Source: an uncultured Chloroflexia bacterium
Lineage (GTDB): Bacteria; Chloroflexota; Limnocylindria; Limnocylindrales; CSP1-4
Assembly: GCA_963843335.1 (NCBI GenBank)
Contig: CAWJKF010000003.1
Span: forward strand, 18,207-82,206
Reading direction: 5' to 3'
Length of the DNA: 64,000 nt
The translations under genes and the position numbers were made by a program. Below the pieces are notes generated by a model. The model saw only the letters and a program-made list of their open reading frames with translations. It ran no database searches and was not told where the DNA came from. Of this stretch, positions 33,531 to 43,949 are shown one piece after another (position 1 is the first letter of the stretch; every line of letters starts with the position of its first letter).

Positions 33531-34989
33531 TCAGGATCGCGGGGCGGTCCCGTCCTGCCCCGGGCTCGCCGCACGGCGTGCCAGGACCCGCACAGTGCCG
33601 CGGAAGATCAGCGCGTGGACGGGATACAGCAGGTACCAGTAGGCCAGGCCGCCGAGCCCGCGTGGCTCGAAGAACGCGGTCTGGACCACGCTGCTGCCCG
33701 CGCCGCTGGGCACCATCTCGTACTGCAGCCACGCCCGACCGGGCACCTTCATCTCCGCCCGGAGCCGGAGCAGCTCCGGCCGCCGGAGCTCCTCCACGCG
33801 CCAGAAGTCGAGCGCGTCGCCCTCCCGTAGACTGACCGGATCGCGCCGACCCAGGCGCATGCCCACTCCGCCGACGATACGGTCGGCCAGGCCCCGGGCG
33901 CGCCACAGCACGGTTGGCATATGGCCAGCCGGTCCGACCCCCGAGGCGTTCCACCTCGGCGAAGACGCGCTCCGGTGACGCATCGACCGTCTGGACACGA
34001 CGCTCGACGATCATCCCCTCGCGTGATCCCTCCAGCGCCAGCCGCTGCCGTCCCGGTGCCGAGCGGGCGTCGAACCAGGTGGTCTCGACCGCGTGACGGT
34101 CGGTCCGGTCGATGGCCAGCTGGAGCGCCTCGGCGTATGGCAGCGGCCGGACCGCGAACCTCGAGGCCGGCCCCGGGTCGCGCACCACGACCTCGTTGCG
34201 CAGGCCCTCGATGAGCGGTCGCGCGATACCCGACGGGATGGGGCTGATGAGACCCACCCAATACGAGCTCAGGCGCGGCGTCAGGACGGGCACTGGGATC
34301 ATCAGCCGCCGCAGCCCGCGCTGGCGGGCGTACGTCAGCATCATGTCGCCGTACGAGAGGACGTCGGGACCGCCGATCTCGACGATGCCCGCGATCGTCG
34401 GGGTCGGTCGAGCGCCGCGCACAGGTAGTCCAGGACGTCCCGGATGCCGATGGGTTGGCAACGCGTCTTGACCCAGCGGGGTGTGATCATCACCGGCAGC
34501 CGCTCCGTGAGCTGACGGAGCATCTCGAACGAGGCGCTGCCCGACCCGATGACGATCGCTGCCCGGAACTCCGTCACTGGCACGCCGTGTGCCGCCAGCT
34601 CGGCGCCAACGGCATGCCGGCTGGCCAGGTGGTGCGACAGGTCGGTGGCGTCGTCGCCCAGACCACCGAGGTAGATGATGCGACCCACACCGGCCGCCGC
34701 CGCAGCCGCGCGCGAAGTCGCGTGCGGCCCGCAGGTCCCGCTCGGCGAAGCCCGCCTCACCGGCCGCCATGGAGTGCGCCAGGTAGTAGGCCACATCGAT
34801 GCCTGCGACCGCAGCCGCCAGGCTGGTCGGGTCCAGGAGGTCGGCCCTGACGGTGCGCGTCCCCGGGAACCGCTCGGAGAGCCGGGCCGGTTCGCGGCCC
34901 GCCAGCGTCAGCGCGTGGCCTCGCTGCGACAACAGCGGGACGAGTCGTCCACCGATGTACCCACTCGCACCGATGATGAGGATGCGCAT
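33531..34989 (-). pseudogene. NAD(P)H-binding SDR-like domain fused to DUF2867, interrupted by at least three frameshifts
   Basis: MRILIIGASGYIGGRLVPLL (frame a) -> GVGRIIYLGGLGD...IVIGSGSASFEMLRQLTERLPVMITPRW (frame b) -> GGPDVLSYGDMMLTYARQRGL...PVLTPRLSSYWVGLISPIPSGIARPLIEGL (frame a) -> DUF2867 block DALDFWRVEELRRPELLRLRAEMKVPGRAWL (frame c). Confidence 0.6.
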
Positions 34990-37829: not shown

Positions 37830-39020
37830 ATGCCCAGTCGACCTCTCGTCACGGACGCCCAGCGCCGCGCTCGCATCGGCCAACGGCATGCGATCGCACC
37901 CCGCTCGCGTGTCGCGTCGCTCGCCGATGCCGCGCGGTCGGTGGTCGCCATCCATGGCACGGACGTCTCGTCGATGTACCTCCAGGGTCGCGCCCGGCTG
38001 CGCCAGTCGTCGCCGATCGCGATCGGACAGGAGCTGTTCGAGACGCGCTCGGTGCTTCGGGTGCTCGCGATGCGCCGGACGCTGTTCCTGGTGCCCGTCG
38101 AGGAGGTGGCCACGCTCCACGCGGCGGCGTCCATCGCCATCGGCCGGCGGGAACGTGCCCGGACGCTGACGATGTTCGGGGTCGGCGACGATGGCCCTGA
38201 CACGGCGGCGATGTTCCAGGACCTGGAAGCCATCGGGCTCGCGGCGATCCGGGCGGCTGGGGAGGCATCGACCGCCGAGCTGACCGGCCTGGATGCACGC
38301 CTGGGCCAACGCATCGACGTCTCGCGGGGCACGTCGTACGCAGGCTCGATCAGCGTCTCCCAGAAGGTGTTCTTCCATCTGGCGCTTGACGGCCGCATCG
38401 GCCGCGGACGACCACGTGGCTCGTGGACCGGGTCACAGGTACGCTGGCGGCCCATCGAGGACTGGCTGCCGGAGGGCATCCGCCCGATGCCGACCGACGC
38501 GGCCCGGGCCCGGCTCGTCGGCCAGTGGCTGCGGGCCTTCGGTCCCGGCACTCGCGAGGATGTCCGCTGGTGGACCGGCTGGACGGTCGCCGAGGTTCGG
38601 ACCGCGCTGGCCGCCAACGATGCAGCCGAGGTAGAGCTCGAGGGTGGCCAGACCGGGTACCTGCTGCCCGACGACCTCGACCCGGTCGGCGTGCCCGAGC
38701 CATGGGTGGCGCTGCTGCCGTCGCTGGATGCCACCACCATGGGTTGGTCGGCGCGCGACTGGTACCTGGGGCCCTATAAGCCCGACCTGTTCGATCGCAA
38801 CGGCAATGCCGGTCCGACGGTCTGGGTGGATGGCCGGATCGTGGGCGGCTGGGCGCAGCGGCCGGACGGCGAGGTCGTCACACGACTCCTGGAGGACGTG
38901 GGGACCGAGGCATCCTCGGCCATCTCGGCGGAGGCAGCCGCAATCGAGTCGTGGCTGCATGGGGCGCGCATCCGGTACAGCTTCCCGACGCCCATGGACA
39001 TCGGCATCCGGATCGGCTGA
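37830..39020 (+). CDS. winged-helix DNA-binding domain protein (DUF1006 / AlkZ-YcaQ-like)
   Basis: Overall length and blocks shared with the AlkZ/YcaQ family (RSVLRVLAMRRTLFLVP, DVRWWTGW, NGNAGPTVWVDGRIVGGW). Confidence 0.65.
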   Translation: MPSRPLVTDAQRRARIGQRHAIAPRSRVASLADAARSVVAIHGTDVSSMYLQGRARLRQSSPIAIGQELFETRSVLRVLAMRRTLFLVPVEEVATLHAAASIAIGRRERARTLTMFGVGDDGPDTAAMFQDLEAIGLAAIRAAGEASTAELTGLDARLGQRIDVSRGTSYAGSISVSQKVFFHLALDGRIGRGRPRGSWTGSQVRWRPIEDWLPEGIRPMPTDAARARLVGQWLRAFGPGTREDVRWWTGWTVAEVRTALAANDAAEVELEGGQTGYLLPDDLDPVGVPEPWVALLPSLDATTMGWSARDWYLGPYKPDLFDRNGNAGPTVWVDGRIVGGWAQRPDGEVVTRLLEDVGTEASSAISAEAAAIESWLHGARIRYSFPTPMDIGIRIG

Positions 39021-39052
39021 GCGAACGGGACGGTGAACGACGTGGCCGTGCC

Positions 39053-39901
39053 TCACGATGGGCGGGCGGCGAGCTCCGCGATCAGGTCGGCCAGGAGGCG
39101 TGGGTCGGCGGTCCAGCCATCCGCGCCCAGCGAGCGTGCCGTCGCTGCATCGGCGACGGCGAAACCACCGACGATGAGGAGTGCCCCGGGATCCTGTCGG
39201 CGCGCCGCGGCGATGAGGCGTCGCGCGTCCCGAAGACGGGCGACATCGGCCACGCTCACGATCACCGCGACCAAGTCGTCGTCGGCGGCCATCGCCGCGG
39301 CCAGCGACGCAGGTGGGGTGTCCGGGCCTGAGTCCAGGACCGCATAGCCATCCCCGCGAAGGATGTCGGACACCATCGCGGCGCCGAGCCCGTGACGGTC
39401 ACCGGGCGGCATCACGACCAGGATGTTGCCGCGGTGGCGACCACGCCGCTGGAACCTCGGTCCGAGACGACCGATGAGCGAGGTGGCGACGCGACTGGCG
39501 ATGTGCTCCTGCTCGATGCCCAGATCGCCGTCCCGCCACCTGCTACCGATGGCATGGAGCGCAGGGCCCAGGATCTCGACGTACGTGTCGGCGGGCGTCA
39601 TGCCAGATGCCATGGCCGCTTCCAGCACCTGCCAGCTGCCCGCAGGGTCGCCGGCCAGCATCCTGCGCTGGAGACGACCTGCCCATGGAGCCGGCTGCCG
39701 CGGGAGCGGGTGGCCGGCGGCGTCTCCGGGCTCAGGCGCCCGGAGACGGTCGAGGTCTCGTGGGTCGACCCGCCAGTGACCACCGACCTTGTCGGCCGGC
39801 AGGATGCCCAGCCGGACATACCGGTACGCGGTCATGTAGTGCACGCCGAGTCGCTCCGCCGCCTGCTGCAGCGTGATCTCGTCGGGAGGGTCGATGGTCA
39901 T
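39053..39901 (-). CDS. CarH/LitR-like B12-binding photoreceptor regulator with an excisionase-type HTH
   Basis: Start MTIDPP. N-terminal HTH (LTLQQAAERLGVHYMTAYRYVRLGILPADKVGGHWRV). B12-binding_2 helical bundle with Wx9EH (WRDGDLGIEQEH). Rossmann B12-binding domain with DxHxxG (GDRHGLG). Confidence 0.75.
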   Translation of the reverse strand: MTIDPPDEITLQQAAERLGVHYMTAYRYVRLGILPADKVGGHWRVDPRDLDRLRAPEPGDAAGHPLPRQPAPWAGRLQRRMLAGDPAGSWQVLEAAMASGMTPADTYVEILGPALHAIGSRWRDGDLGIEQEHIASRVATSLIGRLGPRFQRRGRHRGNILVVMPPGDRHGLGAAMVSDILRGDGYAVLDSGPDTPPASLAAAMAADDDLVAVIVSVADVARLRDARRLIAAARRQDPGALLIVGGFAVADAATARSLGADGWTADPRLLADLIAELAARPS

Positions 39902-39915
39902 GGCGTCTGGACCGG

Positions 39916-40715
39916 TCAGCTGGGGGCCAGCGTTCCCGCGAACACCTGCCAGGCCAGCAACGACTTGGCCACGAGGCTCAGGATGATGTACGTCTTCTCG
40001 CCGAAGAGGTACGAGCGCCAGCGACCCACGCGGCGGTATTGCAGCAGCATGTTGATGGCGAAGATGTTGAAGAACACGAACAGCGACACGAAGATGGCGT
40101 AGACGAAGGCGGGCGGCTCTGCGGCGCTTCCCGGGGACCAGAGATAGATGCCGATGGCCAGCCACGGCGCGATGCCCACGACGCAGCCCATCCAGAAGGG
40201 CAGCAGGATCCGCCCGGCCGTTCGTACTTCTCCTGGACCGCGCCAAAGAAGATCATCGCCGCGTTGGCCGCGAAGATCGCGATGAGGGCAGCGACGTCGC
40301 TGATGCCGGTGATGAGCGCGATGAGCACGATCATCACCGAAGACGACAGTGAGTATTCGGCCCAGCGGTAGAAGTTGTGGTCGGCCTCGAGCCCGGAGAT
40401 GTAGCGACCGAAGACACCCGGCGCGCTCACGAGCCAGTGGAAGCCAGCGGACAGGAACAGGAACAGCGCGACGCCCCACGCCACGGACACGTCGAACAGC
40501 GTGGTCGGCGTGCTGGCCGGGGTCCCTGGAGGACCGTTGAGGAACGATGCCGTGACCGGGAGCGCGAAGGCAGTCGCGAGCGCGATCACTGCCACGCCCT
40601 GCAGGGCGTGGATGAGACCCATCCCGACGTTCCATCGTCTCAGGGACGTTGCGGTGGCCACTGGCATCGGGCGTGGTGATGCGGCTGCTGCTGCAGCGGC
40701 GGAGGCGGAGATCAT
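39916..40715 (-). CDS. heliorhodopsin (retinal-binding, inverted-topology rhodopsin) with one apparent single-base frameshift near 40215
   Basis: Match to heliorhodopsin along its length (SFLNGPPGT, NFYRWAEYSLSSSVMIVLIA, FGAVQEKYERPGG / LLPFWMGCVVGIAPW, YIILSLVAKSLLAWQVFAGTL with Schiff-base Lys). GAGGA Shine-Dalgarno before the ATG at 40715. N- and C-halves lie in ORFs 39978..40715 and 39916..40635. Confidence 0.75.
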
Positions 40716-40775
40716 GAAGCGTGTCCTCAGAGAGCTGCGGAGATCGCGATGGCGGCTCGCTCGCAGCGTCCGTAC

Positions 40776-40787
40776 TTTAGTACTAAA
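40776..40787. promoter_or_regulatory. 12-bp perfect palindrome TTTAGTACTAAA in the AT-rich divergent intergenic region between heliorhodopsin and vapB
   Basis: Read directly in sequence. Lies in the only AT-rich stretch of the intergenic region; candidate operator (RHH antitoxins bind palindromes). Confidence 0.3.
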
Positions 40788-40899
40788 TTGCGTTCGTTGC
40801 AGGGATCGCGCCGACGTCCGGGGTCACGCCTTCCCAGCTGGCGTGACAGCGGGGTCGAACAGGCAGATATCATGTAGCTCCGACTGTTATCATATCGAC

Positions 40900-41142
40900 G
40901 TGATCCGAACACAGATCTCCCTGACCGACGACCAGATGCGGCGCCTTCGCTCGGAAGCCCGCAGGCGGGGCGTGCCGATCGCCGCGGTGGTCCGCGAGGC
41001 GGTGGACCGCGTGGTTCCCGGGGGTGCGCCGTCGCGTCGCGCGGCGTTCGATCGCGCCCTGGCCGCTGCCGGCCGGTTCGACTCCGGGACCGGTGACGTG
41101 GCCGAACGCCACGACGAGATCGCGGGCGAGACGGACTGGTGA
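40900..41142 (+). CDS. vapB: ribbon-helix-helix (CopG-like) antitoxin
   Basis: GTG start. RHH pattern ISLTDDQMRRLRSEARRRGVPIAAVVREAVDR. Stop overlaps the vapC start. Confidence 0.6.
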   Translation: MIRTQISLTDDQMRRLRSEARRRGVPIAAVVREAVDRVVPGGAPSRRAAFDRALAAAGRFDSGTGDVAERHDEIAGETDW

Positions 41143-41555
41143 CGCGCGTCTTCGTTGACACGAGCGCCTTCCTGGCGCTACTCGACCGCGCCGACCCGCG
41201 GCACGTGGACGTCCGGAATGCGTTCGCCGAGCTCACCGGCGACGAGTTGGTGACGCACGGCTACGTCGTGGCGGAGTCGCTCGCAGTCGTCCGGCGCCGC
41301 TTCGGCGTCGACGGCGCGATCGCCCTGGTGGACGACCTCTTGCCGGTCGTGGACCTCGTCCCGGTCGAGCCCGATCTGCACCGGCGCGTTCTCCTTCGCT
41401 ACCGCGAGTCTCTGCCTTCCGGCATCTCGTTCGTCGACCGGGTCAGCTTCGCGATCATCGAGCGCGACGCGATCGATGCTGCCCTGGCGACCGACGCGGA
41501 CTTCCGCGCAACCGGCGTGCCGCTCATCCCGGTGCCTGCGGACCCCACGTCCTGA
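41139..41555 (+). CDS. vapC: PIN-domain ribonuclease toxin
   Basis: MTRVFVDTSAFLALLD (first acidic residue) plus conserved D/E positions further on. Start overlaps the vapB stop. Confidence 0.75.
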   Translation: MTRVFVDTSAFLALLDRADPRHVDVRNAFAELTGDELVTHGYVVAESLAVVRRRFGVDGAIALVDDLLPVVDLVPVEPDLHRRVLLRYRESLPSGISFVDRVSFAIIERDAIDAALATDADFRATGVPLIPVPADPTS

Positions 41556-41796: not shown

Positions 41797-41871
41797 GGCG
41801 GGGTGGAGCAGCGGCAGCTCGTCGGGCTCATAACCCGAAGGTCGGCGGTTCGAATCCGTCCCCCGCAACCA
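41797..41871 (+). tRNA. tRNA-Met(CAU): initiator-type tRNA-Met (anticodon CAU)
   Basis: GGCGGGGTGGAGCAGCGGCAGCTCGTCGGGCTCATAACCCGAAGGTCGGCGGTTCGAATCCGTCCCCCGCAACCA. Near-identical to the E. coli tRNA-fMet architecture (three G-C pairs in the anticodon stem, 1-72 mismatch, encoded CCA). Confidence 0.85.
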
Positions 41872-41929: not shown

Positions 41930-43103
41930 TCAGAGATGCCGGCCGGCCTCGACGGGCCCCAGCGTCATCACGGCGTCCGTGCCACAGATCCGGCCGAGGC
42001 GCTCCACCTGGGCCGAGAGCTCACGCGCCTGCGCACGATCGAGATCGGCGAAGAGCTCCACCCGCAGGTGGAGGCTCCGGCCGACTGGACGCTGGTGCCA
42101 GATCCCGGCTACCACCCCATCCACGAGCACGACCGGCACGTTGCCCGCCTGGCCCCGTGACAAGGCCCGATGCGCCGCGAGACCTGGGAACAGCTGCTCG
42201 CGCGGGTGGCAGCCGACCGTGTACGCGTCGAAGTAGGGCAGGAGCCTGATGCCACGAGGCGGGGGCGGCGGACACCTCGAGGTCGTCCGACGGTAGCCAC
42301 GCCCGCGTGCCCTGGATGTCGACCTCCGTCAATGCCGGGCCCATACGCTCGAACAGCCCGGCCGCCCATCGTTTCGGTGCAGCCAGCCACTGTGCGAACT
42401 GCGCGGGTGTGGCGGGTCCATACGCGAACAGGTAGCGCCGCACCAGGTCCGCGATCGCGGCGTCAGGATCCGCCGGTGCGAAGCCGGGAAGCCAACGACG
42501 CGGGCTCGTGTACGTGACGTTTCGGCCACGGCCAGGGCCGAAGCACAGGACGCCCTGTCGTGCGGCTGGGATGATGGCGCGTCGCCACCGGGGCCACATC
42601 TCGTTGAACGCCGGGATGACCCGCGCATCAGCCCACGGACCGGTCGCCGCCACGACCCGCTCGCCCAGCTGGTCGAGCGTCAGCTCTGCGTCGCGCACAG
42701 CCGTGTCCATCGCCGCGATGATCTCGATCATCTCAGCATCGCCCAGTCGCAGCTCTGGGGGCAGGCTGTCCGACCCAGCTGGAACGCACGACAGCGCGCC
42801 GGTCCACATCGGCAGCTCGCTGGTCGGCAGCAGGTGCACCGTGCCGCGAGGCCCGAACGTCTTGATCAGGCTGCGGTCCACCCACAGCGCCTGCCGGATG
42901 TCCGATCGAGTGCCGGTCGCCATCCGCAGACCGATCGAGAGCTCGGCCGCAGCCATGACCTGGGCATGCGCGCCGGCGATGCTGCTGCAGACCTCGGCTG
43001 GCCGGGCAACGGATACCGGGTCAGCCAGCCGGTGGCGTTGCAGCCGCCTCGCGTGGACCTGCGACCACGTCATCAGGGGCAGGATCGGACGGCCGGCGCT
43101 CAT
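41930..43103 (-). CDS. second winged-helix DUF1006 / AlkZ-YcaQ-like gene, with an apparent frameshift near 42200-42300
   Basis: Start MSAGRPILPLMTWSQVHARRLQRHRL. Family blocks RGTVHLLPTSELPMW, FGPGRGRNVTYTSP, YLFAYGPATPAQFAQW. C-terminal GNVPVVLVDGVVAGIWHQRP is in a different frame (ORF 41930..42163). Confidence 0.55.
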
Positions 43104-43128
43104 CGCGACAGTGTGACGCCACGTATGG

Positions 43129-43901
43129 TCAGGACCCGAGTACCCCGCCATTGATATCCAGGGTGGCGCCGGTGATGAAGCCATCGTATTCGGAGGCAAG
43201 GAACACCGCGGCCCGGGCCACGTCGTCGGCCGTACCAGCTCTGCCGAGCGGATCCTGGCGACCGACGCCTCGGCGGATTCGGCCGTGGTGTGGGTATCGT
43301 GGAACGAGGTGCCGAGGATCATGCCCGGGGCCAGGGCGTTGACACGCACGCCGCGCGGCCCGACCTCGCTCGCCAGGGCGCGCGTGAAGGTGAGGATGGC
43401 GCCCTTGCCGGTGGAGTAGACGAGCGAGCCCGGATGGCCACCCTGACGACCGGCAAGCGAGGCGAGGTTGACGATGCTCGCGCCACCGCGGGTCTGTGCC
43501 GCCGCGATGAGGTGGGGCAGGGCCGCCCGCGTGACACGACGGGTGCTGCCCAGATTGACGTCCATGACCTCGTCCCAGAAGGCATCGTCCGCTTCGCTCA
43601 GGCTCTTGCGCGCGACCAGCGACCCTGCGTTGTTGACGAGCACGTCGATGCCGCCGAGGAAGTCGACCGCGCACGCCACGAGCTCGTCGCATGCTGCGGT
43701 CGCAGTGAGGTCTGCGGACGCCTGCGCGGAGCGGCGACCGAGCTGCTCGGCCTCGCGTGCCAGCTCCCGTGCGCCCTCCGCACTGGAGCGGTAGTGGACG
43801 AACACGTCGCAGCCCGCCGCCAGCAGGTGGCGGGAGATGGCATGGCCGATACCTTGACCGCCCGCGGTGACGAGCGCCCGCTTCCCCGACAGCTTGTGCA
43901 T
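43129..43901 (-). CDS. short-chain dehydrogenase/reductase (SDR) with an apparent frameshift near 43290
   Basis: TAGGQGIGHAI (cofactor-binding motif), NNAG, YSTGKGAIL (catalytic Y-x3-K) in one frame. C-terminal GRAGTADDVARAAVFLASEYDGFITGATLDINGGVLGS in another. Confidence 0.6.
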
Positions 43902-43949
43902 CGCCGGTCCAGACGTCTCGACCATGTGCACGGGTCGTCAGGCCGAGGA

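Follow-up and report, generated by a model that had tools for sequence, protein, structure and literature searches.

The function of heliorhodopsins (HeRs) is known for only a few members, and co-operonic candidate partners have been the pattern used to find such functions (PMC11109279). Here we consider an HeR gene followed by the gene of a predicted B12-dependent photoreceptor regulator. Both lie in a stretch of 64,000 nucleotides (nt) of contig CAWJKF010000003.1 (assembly GCA_963843335.1) from an uncultured Chloroflexia bacterium; this whole 64-kb stretch is called the window below. Like the HeR operons that hold glutamine synthetase, photolyase or ABC transporter genes, the locus places HeR beside a candidate functional partner, but in the window this neighbour is a transcription factor predicted to carry a chromophore of its own.

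The closest known systems include the CarH/LitR adenosylcobalamin photoreceptor repressors, i.e. CarH of T. thermophilus (TtCarH; 5C8D/5C8E), CarH of Myxococcus, and LitR of Streptomyces and Bacillus. The window regulator has the same three-part build, comprising a winged helix, a four-helix bundle with the Wx9EH motif, and a Rossmann B12 domain that holds the histidine serving as lower ligand. Its predicted operator, like theirs, lies over the promoter of a light-related operon. It differs in its DNA-binding domain, which is of the HTH_17/excisionase type rather than the MerR type, and in its presumed target: HeR, in some loci together with a fasciclin lipoprotein, takes the place of the carotenoid genes. 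The operators differ as well: the window type is a 12-bp palindrome, whereas TtCarH binds direct repeats.

CtMerR of Chloracidobacterium thermophilum (8JBS/8JBT) is the best match to the window B12 domain in both sequence and fold. According to the passages on this protein, it binds adenosylcobalamin, forms a tetramer, responds to green light, and has a DNA-binding domain that diverges from that of CarH; the same passages name no target genes or operator (PMC11796333). CtMerR and the window regulator share ~30% identity over the B12 domain, but their N-terminal DNA-binding regions do not align. In Streptomyces, LitR is described in the relevant passages as partnering the ECF sigma factor LitS (PMC11519972). 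This arrangement has a likeness in Acidimicrobiia, where pairs of the candidate operator precede ECF sigma and anti-sigma factor genes and then a photolyase gene. The window and the Chloroflexota operons, in contrast, contain no sigma factor, and control of HeR appears to be direct.

Two surveys of HeR neighbourhoods touch on the pairing. Chazan et al. (bioRxiv 10.1101/2021.02.16.431466) found that the genes next to HeRs and proton pumps include some for cobalamin-binding proteins. Cho et al. 2024 (PMC11109279) report a 'MerR family transcriptional regulator' group of HeR operons, which is not confirmed as the B12 type in the passages that present it. In their parts on gene neighbours, both surveys consist of statistics and lists and give no operator, promoter, mechanism or fasciclin gene. 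A sequence-only reading of the window had taken the pairing to be undescribed; cobalamin-binding HeR neighbours had in fact been listed by Chazan et al., although the pairing was not analysed. Fusions of HTH_17 with B12 domains are noted only in domain-architecture surveys, in the parts concerned (PMC8717448, PMC11796333). Our literature search found no paper joining heliorhodopsin with CarH, nor genuinely with LitR, and no paper linking heliorhodopsin with fasciclin.

The Heliorhodopsin-Regulator Operon

On balance, the locus is probably a light-inducible, self-regulated two-gene operon under an adenosylcobalamin-dependent CarH-like repressor. HeR and the regulator are both encoded on the minus strand of the window, with the following features.

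39916..40715, minus strand: HeR gene, 266 amino acids once one absent base is restored (PF18761, NF038020, alignment to 6SU3)
39902..39915, minus strand: intergenic spacer of 14 nt, from the HeR stop codon to the regulator ATG (sequence reading)
39053..39901, minus strand: predicted CarH-like B12 photoreceptor regulator, 282 amino acids (Pfam, NCBIfam and structure matches)
40776..40787, minus strand: candidate operator, a perfect palindrome of 12 bp (TTTAGTACTAAA) located 60 nt before the HeR ATG
40770..40815, minus strand: presumed promoter region of the HeR-regulator operon (alignment to the relatives' consensus gcTTGACAnnnnngaTTTAGTGCTAAATAcT)
40205..40211, minus strand: site of a 1-nt deletion in HeR, at or adjoining GGATCC at 40206-40211 (DNA alignment, blastn gaps, GGATCC positions)

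The identification of the first gene as a heliorhodopsin, made from the sequence alone, is borne out by profile searches with the one-base-repaired translation. It matches PF18761 from end to end (E 1.5e-98, 329 bits vs. a cut-off of 26.7) and the NCBIfam equivalog NF038020 with 317 bits vs. a cut-off of 100, and it scores 282 bits against HeR 48C12 (PDB 6SU3). The Schiff-base lysine and helix-3 glutamate that had been recognised in it are indeed retained: K251 aligns with the Schiff-base K241 of 48C12 and E120 with the counterion E107. H36 corresponds to H23, and thus the protein holds all the key residues of 48C12. Amino-acid identity to the intact genes of two close relatives, loci L081 and L082, is 88-95%. 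By profile and alignment, the window gene is a canonical heliorhodopsin.

The two genes are separated by 14 nt, not by the 15 bp first reported, and a scan of this spacer revealed no terminator-like or promoter-like site. The closest relatives, whose regulators are 83-86% identical to that of the window, have the same layout of HeR, 14-nt gap and regulator (L081, L082), and they share the flanks too, namely an AlkZ-like gene and an S9 peptidase. The nearest relatives are metagenome-assembled genomes (MAGs) labelled Chloroflexia or Limnocylindrales.

Other genomes were surveyed for the pair, as had been suggested when it was noticed, by a scan with the regulator alignment, taking one genome per species. 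The best 80 of at least 590 matches were kept as 80 loci, and 6 kb either side of each regulator was examined. Among 30 loci of the Chloroflexota type (Chloroflexia, Limnocylindrales and similar), 22 have an intact HeR directly upstream on the same strand, 5 hold remnants and 3 have no HeR. The 50 actinomycetotal loci are different: 3 have an intact HeR directly upstream on the same strand, 1 has it downstream, a remnant is present in 1, HeR is missing from 41, and 4 are cut by a contig end. Outside the Chloroflexota type, a few Acidimicrobiia hold the pair, and in the close relatives L081-L083 HeR likewise directly precedes the regulator on the same strand. Altogether, the arrangement is common to more than 25 other species. 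Because the adjacency recurs across species, it is, as judged from these genomes, a conserved operon and not a coincidence.

HeR has nevertheless been lost from the operon repeatedly. Clean deletions have removed it from L001, L003 and L031, and L016 (5653-6001), L023 (5546-5992) and L028 (5492-5977) carry internal deletions. L029 keeps only a C-terminal fragment, like L023, and L027 is also among the loci with HeR loss. The internal deletions take out either the N-terminal helices or the region around the Schiff-base lysine. The fasciclin gene, the operator and the regulator are all retained in these loci, and since they persist after the loss of HeR, the regulator does not depend on it.

The Regulator

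The domain assignment proposed from the sequence, an excisionase-type helix-turn-helix (HTH), a B12-binding four-helix bundle with Wx9EH and a Rossmann domain with DRHGLG, agrees with Pfam and with an alignment of 20 homologues (57-84% identity). All three domains score above their Pfam cut-offs. Residues 9-53 form the winged helix of HTH_17 (PF12728), and NCBIfam adds a match to the excisionase domain TIGR01764. The helix bundle at residues 76-146 corresponds to B12-binding_2 (PF02607, E 7.5e-13) and carries the GxxW and EH elements, while the Rossmann domain at residues 160-264 corresponds to B12-binding (PF02310, E 2.2e-11) and carries GxxH and GxxxP. W122-x9-E132-H133 and H170, the latter within DRHGLG, are invariant in the 20 homologues. 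In CarH/LitR proteins Wx9EH caps the adenosyl group, and the lower axial histidine stands in E/DxHxxG. GxxW, EH, GxxH and GxxxP make up the signature of light-responsive cobalamin domains as set out in the SignatureFinder passages of PMC11796333. In the regulator this signature is complete (G119-S-R-W122, E132-H133, G167-D-R-H170 and G192-P-D-T-P196) and likewise invariant in the homologues.

The best solved relatives are the cobalamin-binding domain of CtMerR (8JBS, E 5.9e-21), TtCarH and the photocobilins, all of them proven adenosylcobalamin photoreceptors; weak matches to MtgC, MtaC and MetH were obtained as well. The AlphaFold model (mean pLDDT 83) consists of a winged helix, a helix bundle and a Rossmann fold, and Foldseek relates it with a probability of 1.0 to 8JBS, at rank 1, and to full-length TtCarH. 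The TM-scores are low (~0.4) with a root-mean-square deviation of ~10 Å, and because of the latter the low scores are attributed to a different relative placement of the domains in the model. Taken by its domains, the regulator is a protein that would work like CarH/LitR but is not a strict member of that group. A homology search found more than 1000 proteins of its family at E <= 1e-5.

The Palindrome and the Promoter

The palindrome TTTAGTACTAAA had been proposed as the operator of the regulator, and the relatives lend this proposal considerable weight, since the element is strongly conserved inside their operon promoter. In the window it is a single match even when 2 mismatches are allowed (0.1 matches in shuffled sequence). 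L081-L083 keep it as TTTAGTGCTAAA or ATTAGTGCTAAA, although the rest of their upstream DNA has diverged. In the 908 kb that the regulator loci comprise, TTAGNNCTAA was counted 58 times vs. ~1.3 expected from base composition, a ~40-fold enrichment. One copy of the palindrome is present in all 27 Chloroflexota loci with enough upstream sequence, and in 26 of them its context is gcTTGACAnnnnngaTTTAGTGCTAAATAcT, i.e. a TTGACA -35 element, a 17-nt spacer and a -10-like AATACT. In these 26 loci the palindrome lies at a fixed distance from TTGACA, fills the 17-nt spacer and touches the -10 element. The palindrome is best explained as the predicted operator of the regulator, because of this position in the promoter and because of its link to one regulator family in two phyla. 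A neighbouring RHH antitoxin was considered as the protein that binds the palindrome and was ruled out; the element is conserved where the toxin-antitoxin pair is absent.

MerR activators act on overlong spacers of 19-20 nt. The optimal spacer length found here favours, as far as promoter architecture can tell, repression by occlusion over activation of the MerR type. In the window itself the -35 element is weak (CTGCAA), and a -10-like TAAAGT overlaps the palindrome. A scan of window positions 38900-41200 detected no consensus sigma-70 promoter or intrinsic terminator; the window promoter is therefore presumed on homology to the relatives. Rfam gives no cobalamin riboswitch or any other known RNA ahead of HeR, its only match in the window being a tRNA-Met.

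In most Chloroflexota the promoter would drive three genes, in the order fasciclin lipoprotein, HeR, regulator. The fasciclin-domain lipoprotein (PF02469, E 4.8e-41) was found in 33 loci; it is secreted and has one or two FAS1 domains, e.g. at L004 4506-5048, L001 4762-5769 and L008 704-1699. The algal FAS1 protein AstaP binds carotenoids. The clade of the window has no fasciclin gene, and the operator stands directly before HeR. Where the fasciclin gene is present, a GC-rich stem-loop of 13 bp lies between it and HeR (e.g. L007 5111-5203, L017 5099-5191), with compensatory changes in 10 of the 13 pairs and no T-tract, and it is followed by an AAGGA element resembling a ribosome-binding site just ahead of the HeR start. 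By acting as a partial terminator or by stabilising the mRNA, this stem-loop could set the ratio of fasciclin to HeR.

In Acidimicrobiia the same palindrome, often as pairs 26-37 nt apart, is followed by genes for an ECF sigma factor and its zf-HC2/RskA anti-sigma factor, for an acyltransferase and for a photolyase (L041 2875-6706, L044 6896-10650, L048 2253-6073, L042 4527-6181). In L042 the ECF sigma factor is followed by HeR. This gene set is typical of a light regulon and resembles LitR-LitS, and it marks the predicted targets of the regulator family as light-response genes.

The Frameshift in the Heliorhodopsin Gene

Compared with three intact relatives, exactly one base is absent from the window HeR, at GGCGGATC^CTG (plus strand 40205-40207). 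It belongs to a Ser codon in the relatives, and the frame shifts after ...EKYERPGG. A 1-bp deletion had been noticed from the sequence near 40215; the deletion exists, but its position is 40205-40207. The HeR genes of L081 (from ENA), L082 and L083 (from JGI) are intact and encode 266 amino acids.

The frameshift could mean that HeR is here a true, very recent pseudogene and the locus a decaying remnant in which only the regulator works. It is, after all, present in the assembled sequence, and HeR loss recurs in this operon among other genomes. The distribution of lesions tells against this. The frame is broken in 4 of ~20 genes syntenic with L081/L082, those for HeR, an SDR, an epimerase/DUF2867 protein and an ion-channel protein. 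Breaks on this scale are typical of long reads that err systematically at a methylated site. All three uncompensated 1-nt deletions in coding sequence lie at or adjoining GGATCC, a BamHI-type site (40206, 43250 and ~32475, with GGATCC at 43250-43255); other positions listed with the frame-broken genes are 32401, 32801 and 33911. The 24.5-kb syntenic stretch contains 17 GGATCC sites, and as only ~0.7% of positions are in such a context, three deletions out of three at GGATCC are far from chance. The HeR codons past the break have a ratio of nonsynonymous to synonymous substitution (dN/dS) of 0.04-0.07 vs. the relatives, a sign of strong purifying selection, and amino-acid identity to L082 is 94% both before and after the break, with no further lesion. 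Given the deletions at GGATCC, the intact relatives and the purifying selection past the break, the frameshift is probably an assembly artefact, produced by systematic error of long reads at a methylated motif. A true pseudogene is unlikely. Programmed frameshifting was ruled out; the relatives keep one frame, with the Ser codon at the site.

Broken genes in this assembly cluster at GGATCC, and caution is needed not to read them as pseudogenes. The open reading frame at 42021-43931 is an artificial fusion of SDR and AlkZ-like sequence produced by one such break. In two long-read MAGs (L064 6152-6802, L079 6221-6844) the regulator match begins 150-220 nt later than elsewhere, which suggests that these regulator genes are also frame-broken, possibly by the same kind of assembly error.

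Proposed Mechanism and Alternatives

In the dark, the regulator would bind adenosylcobalamin, oligomerise and occupy the palindrome TTTAGTRCTAAA, which overlaps the core promoter. RNA polymerase would be blocked, and HeR and the regulator would be off. Green or blue light would break the Co-C bond, whereupon the oligomer would dissociate and leave the DNA, and HeR and the regulator, in relatives together with the fasciclin protein, would be transcribed. HeR would thus be the target of the switch, made only when light is usable, and would not take part in signalling with the regulator. We infer from sequence comparison that the regulator binds B12, leaves the DNA in light and acts as a repressor, not an activator; the transcript and an intact HeR in the organism are likewise inferred.

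Light regulation of HeR draws support from the adjacency, because it is conserved across many species. The sequence-only reading had left a choice between light-regulated HeR expression and a two-chromophore photoresponse module. The former gains from this conservation, whereas the latter suffers from the fact that the regulator family is mostly without HeR in Actinomycetota and that HeR is lost while the regulator stays. In a partnership of two photoreceptors, light-activated HeR would bind, sequester or release the regulator at the membrane, and the two chromophores would be integrated. The tight operon linkage conserved across species would fit such a scheme, and so would the binding of neighbour-gene products by characterised HeRs (glutamine synthetase, photolyase, ABC transporter; PMC9529153, PMC9769723, PMC11109279) and the report of a proton-pumping rhodopsin that regulates an HTH transcription factor (PMC11217422). 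However, 41 of the 46 assessable actinomycetotal regulator loci have no HeR, and in 8 Chloroflexota loci HeR is deleted or eroded while regulator and operator persist. Furthermore, the regulator has a complete light sensor of its own, and in the 20-homologue alignment the HeR-linked regulators show no extra domain or HeR-specific feature. Such a partnership is quite improbable, and the evidence, in our reading of the genomes, favours regulation of HeR over regulation by HeR.

It is also improbable that the regulator is a light-dependent activator of the MerR-like or class II-like kind, or that it represses in light. MerR-type activators, too, bind between -35 and -10, where the palindrome lies, and the poor -35 of the window clade could need activation. 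Yet 26 loci combine a consensus TTGACA with the optimal 17-nt spacer, not one of 19-20 nt, and all characterised adenosylcobalamin CarH/LitR proteins are, in the passages that treat them, dark repressors (PMC4557120, PMC11796333). If the B12 domain sensed cobalamin supply instead of light, the operon would respond to B12 availability. B12-binding and B12-binding_2 domains do occur in light-independent corrinoid proteins, in line with the weak MtgC, MtaC and MetH matches, but the four elements of the light signature are present and invariant, the best structural relatives are photoreceptors, and the regulated genes are light-related (HeR, photolyase). We hold sensing of cobalamin supply to be very improbable.

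Several points weigh against the proposed light-inducible operon under a CarH-like repressor. The HeR frame is broken as assembled. The DNA-binding domain of the regulator is typed as HTH_17/excisionase and not as MerR, and the CarH equivalog NF052513 TransRegCarH reaches only 68.7 bits vs. a cut-off of 400, over the B12 part only; on these two grounds, the behaviour of CarH cannot simply be transferred. The Chloroflexota loci hold a single palindrome, whereas the CarH tetramer contacts several repeats. Many actinomycetotal regulator loci have no palindrome within 6 kb, and the window clade is without the strong TTGACA -35 of other Chloroflexota, the promoter scan being empty. Finally, Pfam scans of 20 further open reading frames of the window found no carotenoid, retinal, B12 or photolyase genes, so that genes supplying adenosylcobalamin or retinal are missing among those scanned.

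A more speculative extension, to which we give little credence, is a light-gated envelope module in which the B12 switch controls an extracytoplasmic fasciclin protein that works with HeR on the membrane's outer face, e.g. in carotenoid or retinal handling, or a feedback of HeR on the regulator by direct binding, which would make a true two-chromophore circuit. If true, either version would provide HeR with a definite partner and with an output open to test.

Neighbouring Genes

AlkZ-like sequences flank the operon on both sides.

37830-39020, plus strand: AlkZ-like gene (PF06224, E 2.5e-59)
~42008-43088, minus strand: second AlkZ-like stretch, weaker than the gene at 37830-39020

From these flanks a UV-damage context had been proposed. 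The AlkZ-like sequences were confirmed, but the link to UV damage is weak. The gene at 37830-39020 is convergent to the HeR-regulator pair, which places it outside the operon, and beyond the closest relatives it occurs beside the pair only in two Acidimicrobiia (L021, L040). AlkZ was ruled out as a member of the module on account of this orientation and narrow conservation.

An RHH antitoxin and PIN-domain toxin pair (40900-41555, plus strand) lies between the tRNA-Met gene (41797-41871, plus strand) and the HeR promoter. Since it has no counterpart in the otherwise syntenic L081 and L082, it appears to have been inserted recently beside the tRNA gene. A NAD-epimerase/NmrA protein fused to DUF2867 is encoded at 33534-34989 on the minus strand and turns up again close to the regulator or HeR in lineages far apart (L008 2518-4089, L041 1213-2682). 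In L008 it is inside the operon, between HeR and the regulator, adjoining a START/polyketide-cyclase-like protein.

Implications

The regulator represents a large CarH-like photoreceptor family with an excisionase-type DNA-binding domain, for which we found no experimental study. With its simple palindromic site and excisionase-type domain, it could serve as a green-light gene switch. For HeR, the operon would provide a concrete regulatory input, a B12 photoreceptor, together with a defined 12-bp operator and promoter, and it points to co-regulated genes to test, i.e. the fasciclin lipoprotein in Chloroflexota and the ECF sigma factor with photolyase in Acidimicrobiia. Light induction itself would be unsurprising. 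The value of the locus is that of a conserved, dissectable regulatory unit for a family of mostly unknown function.

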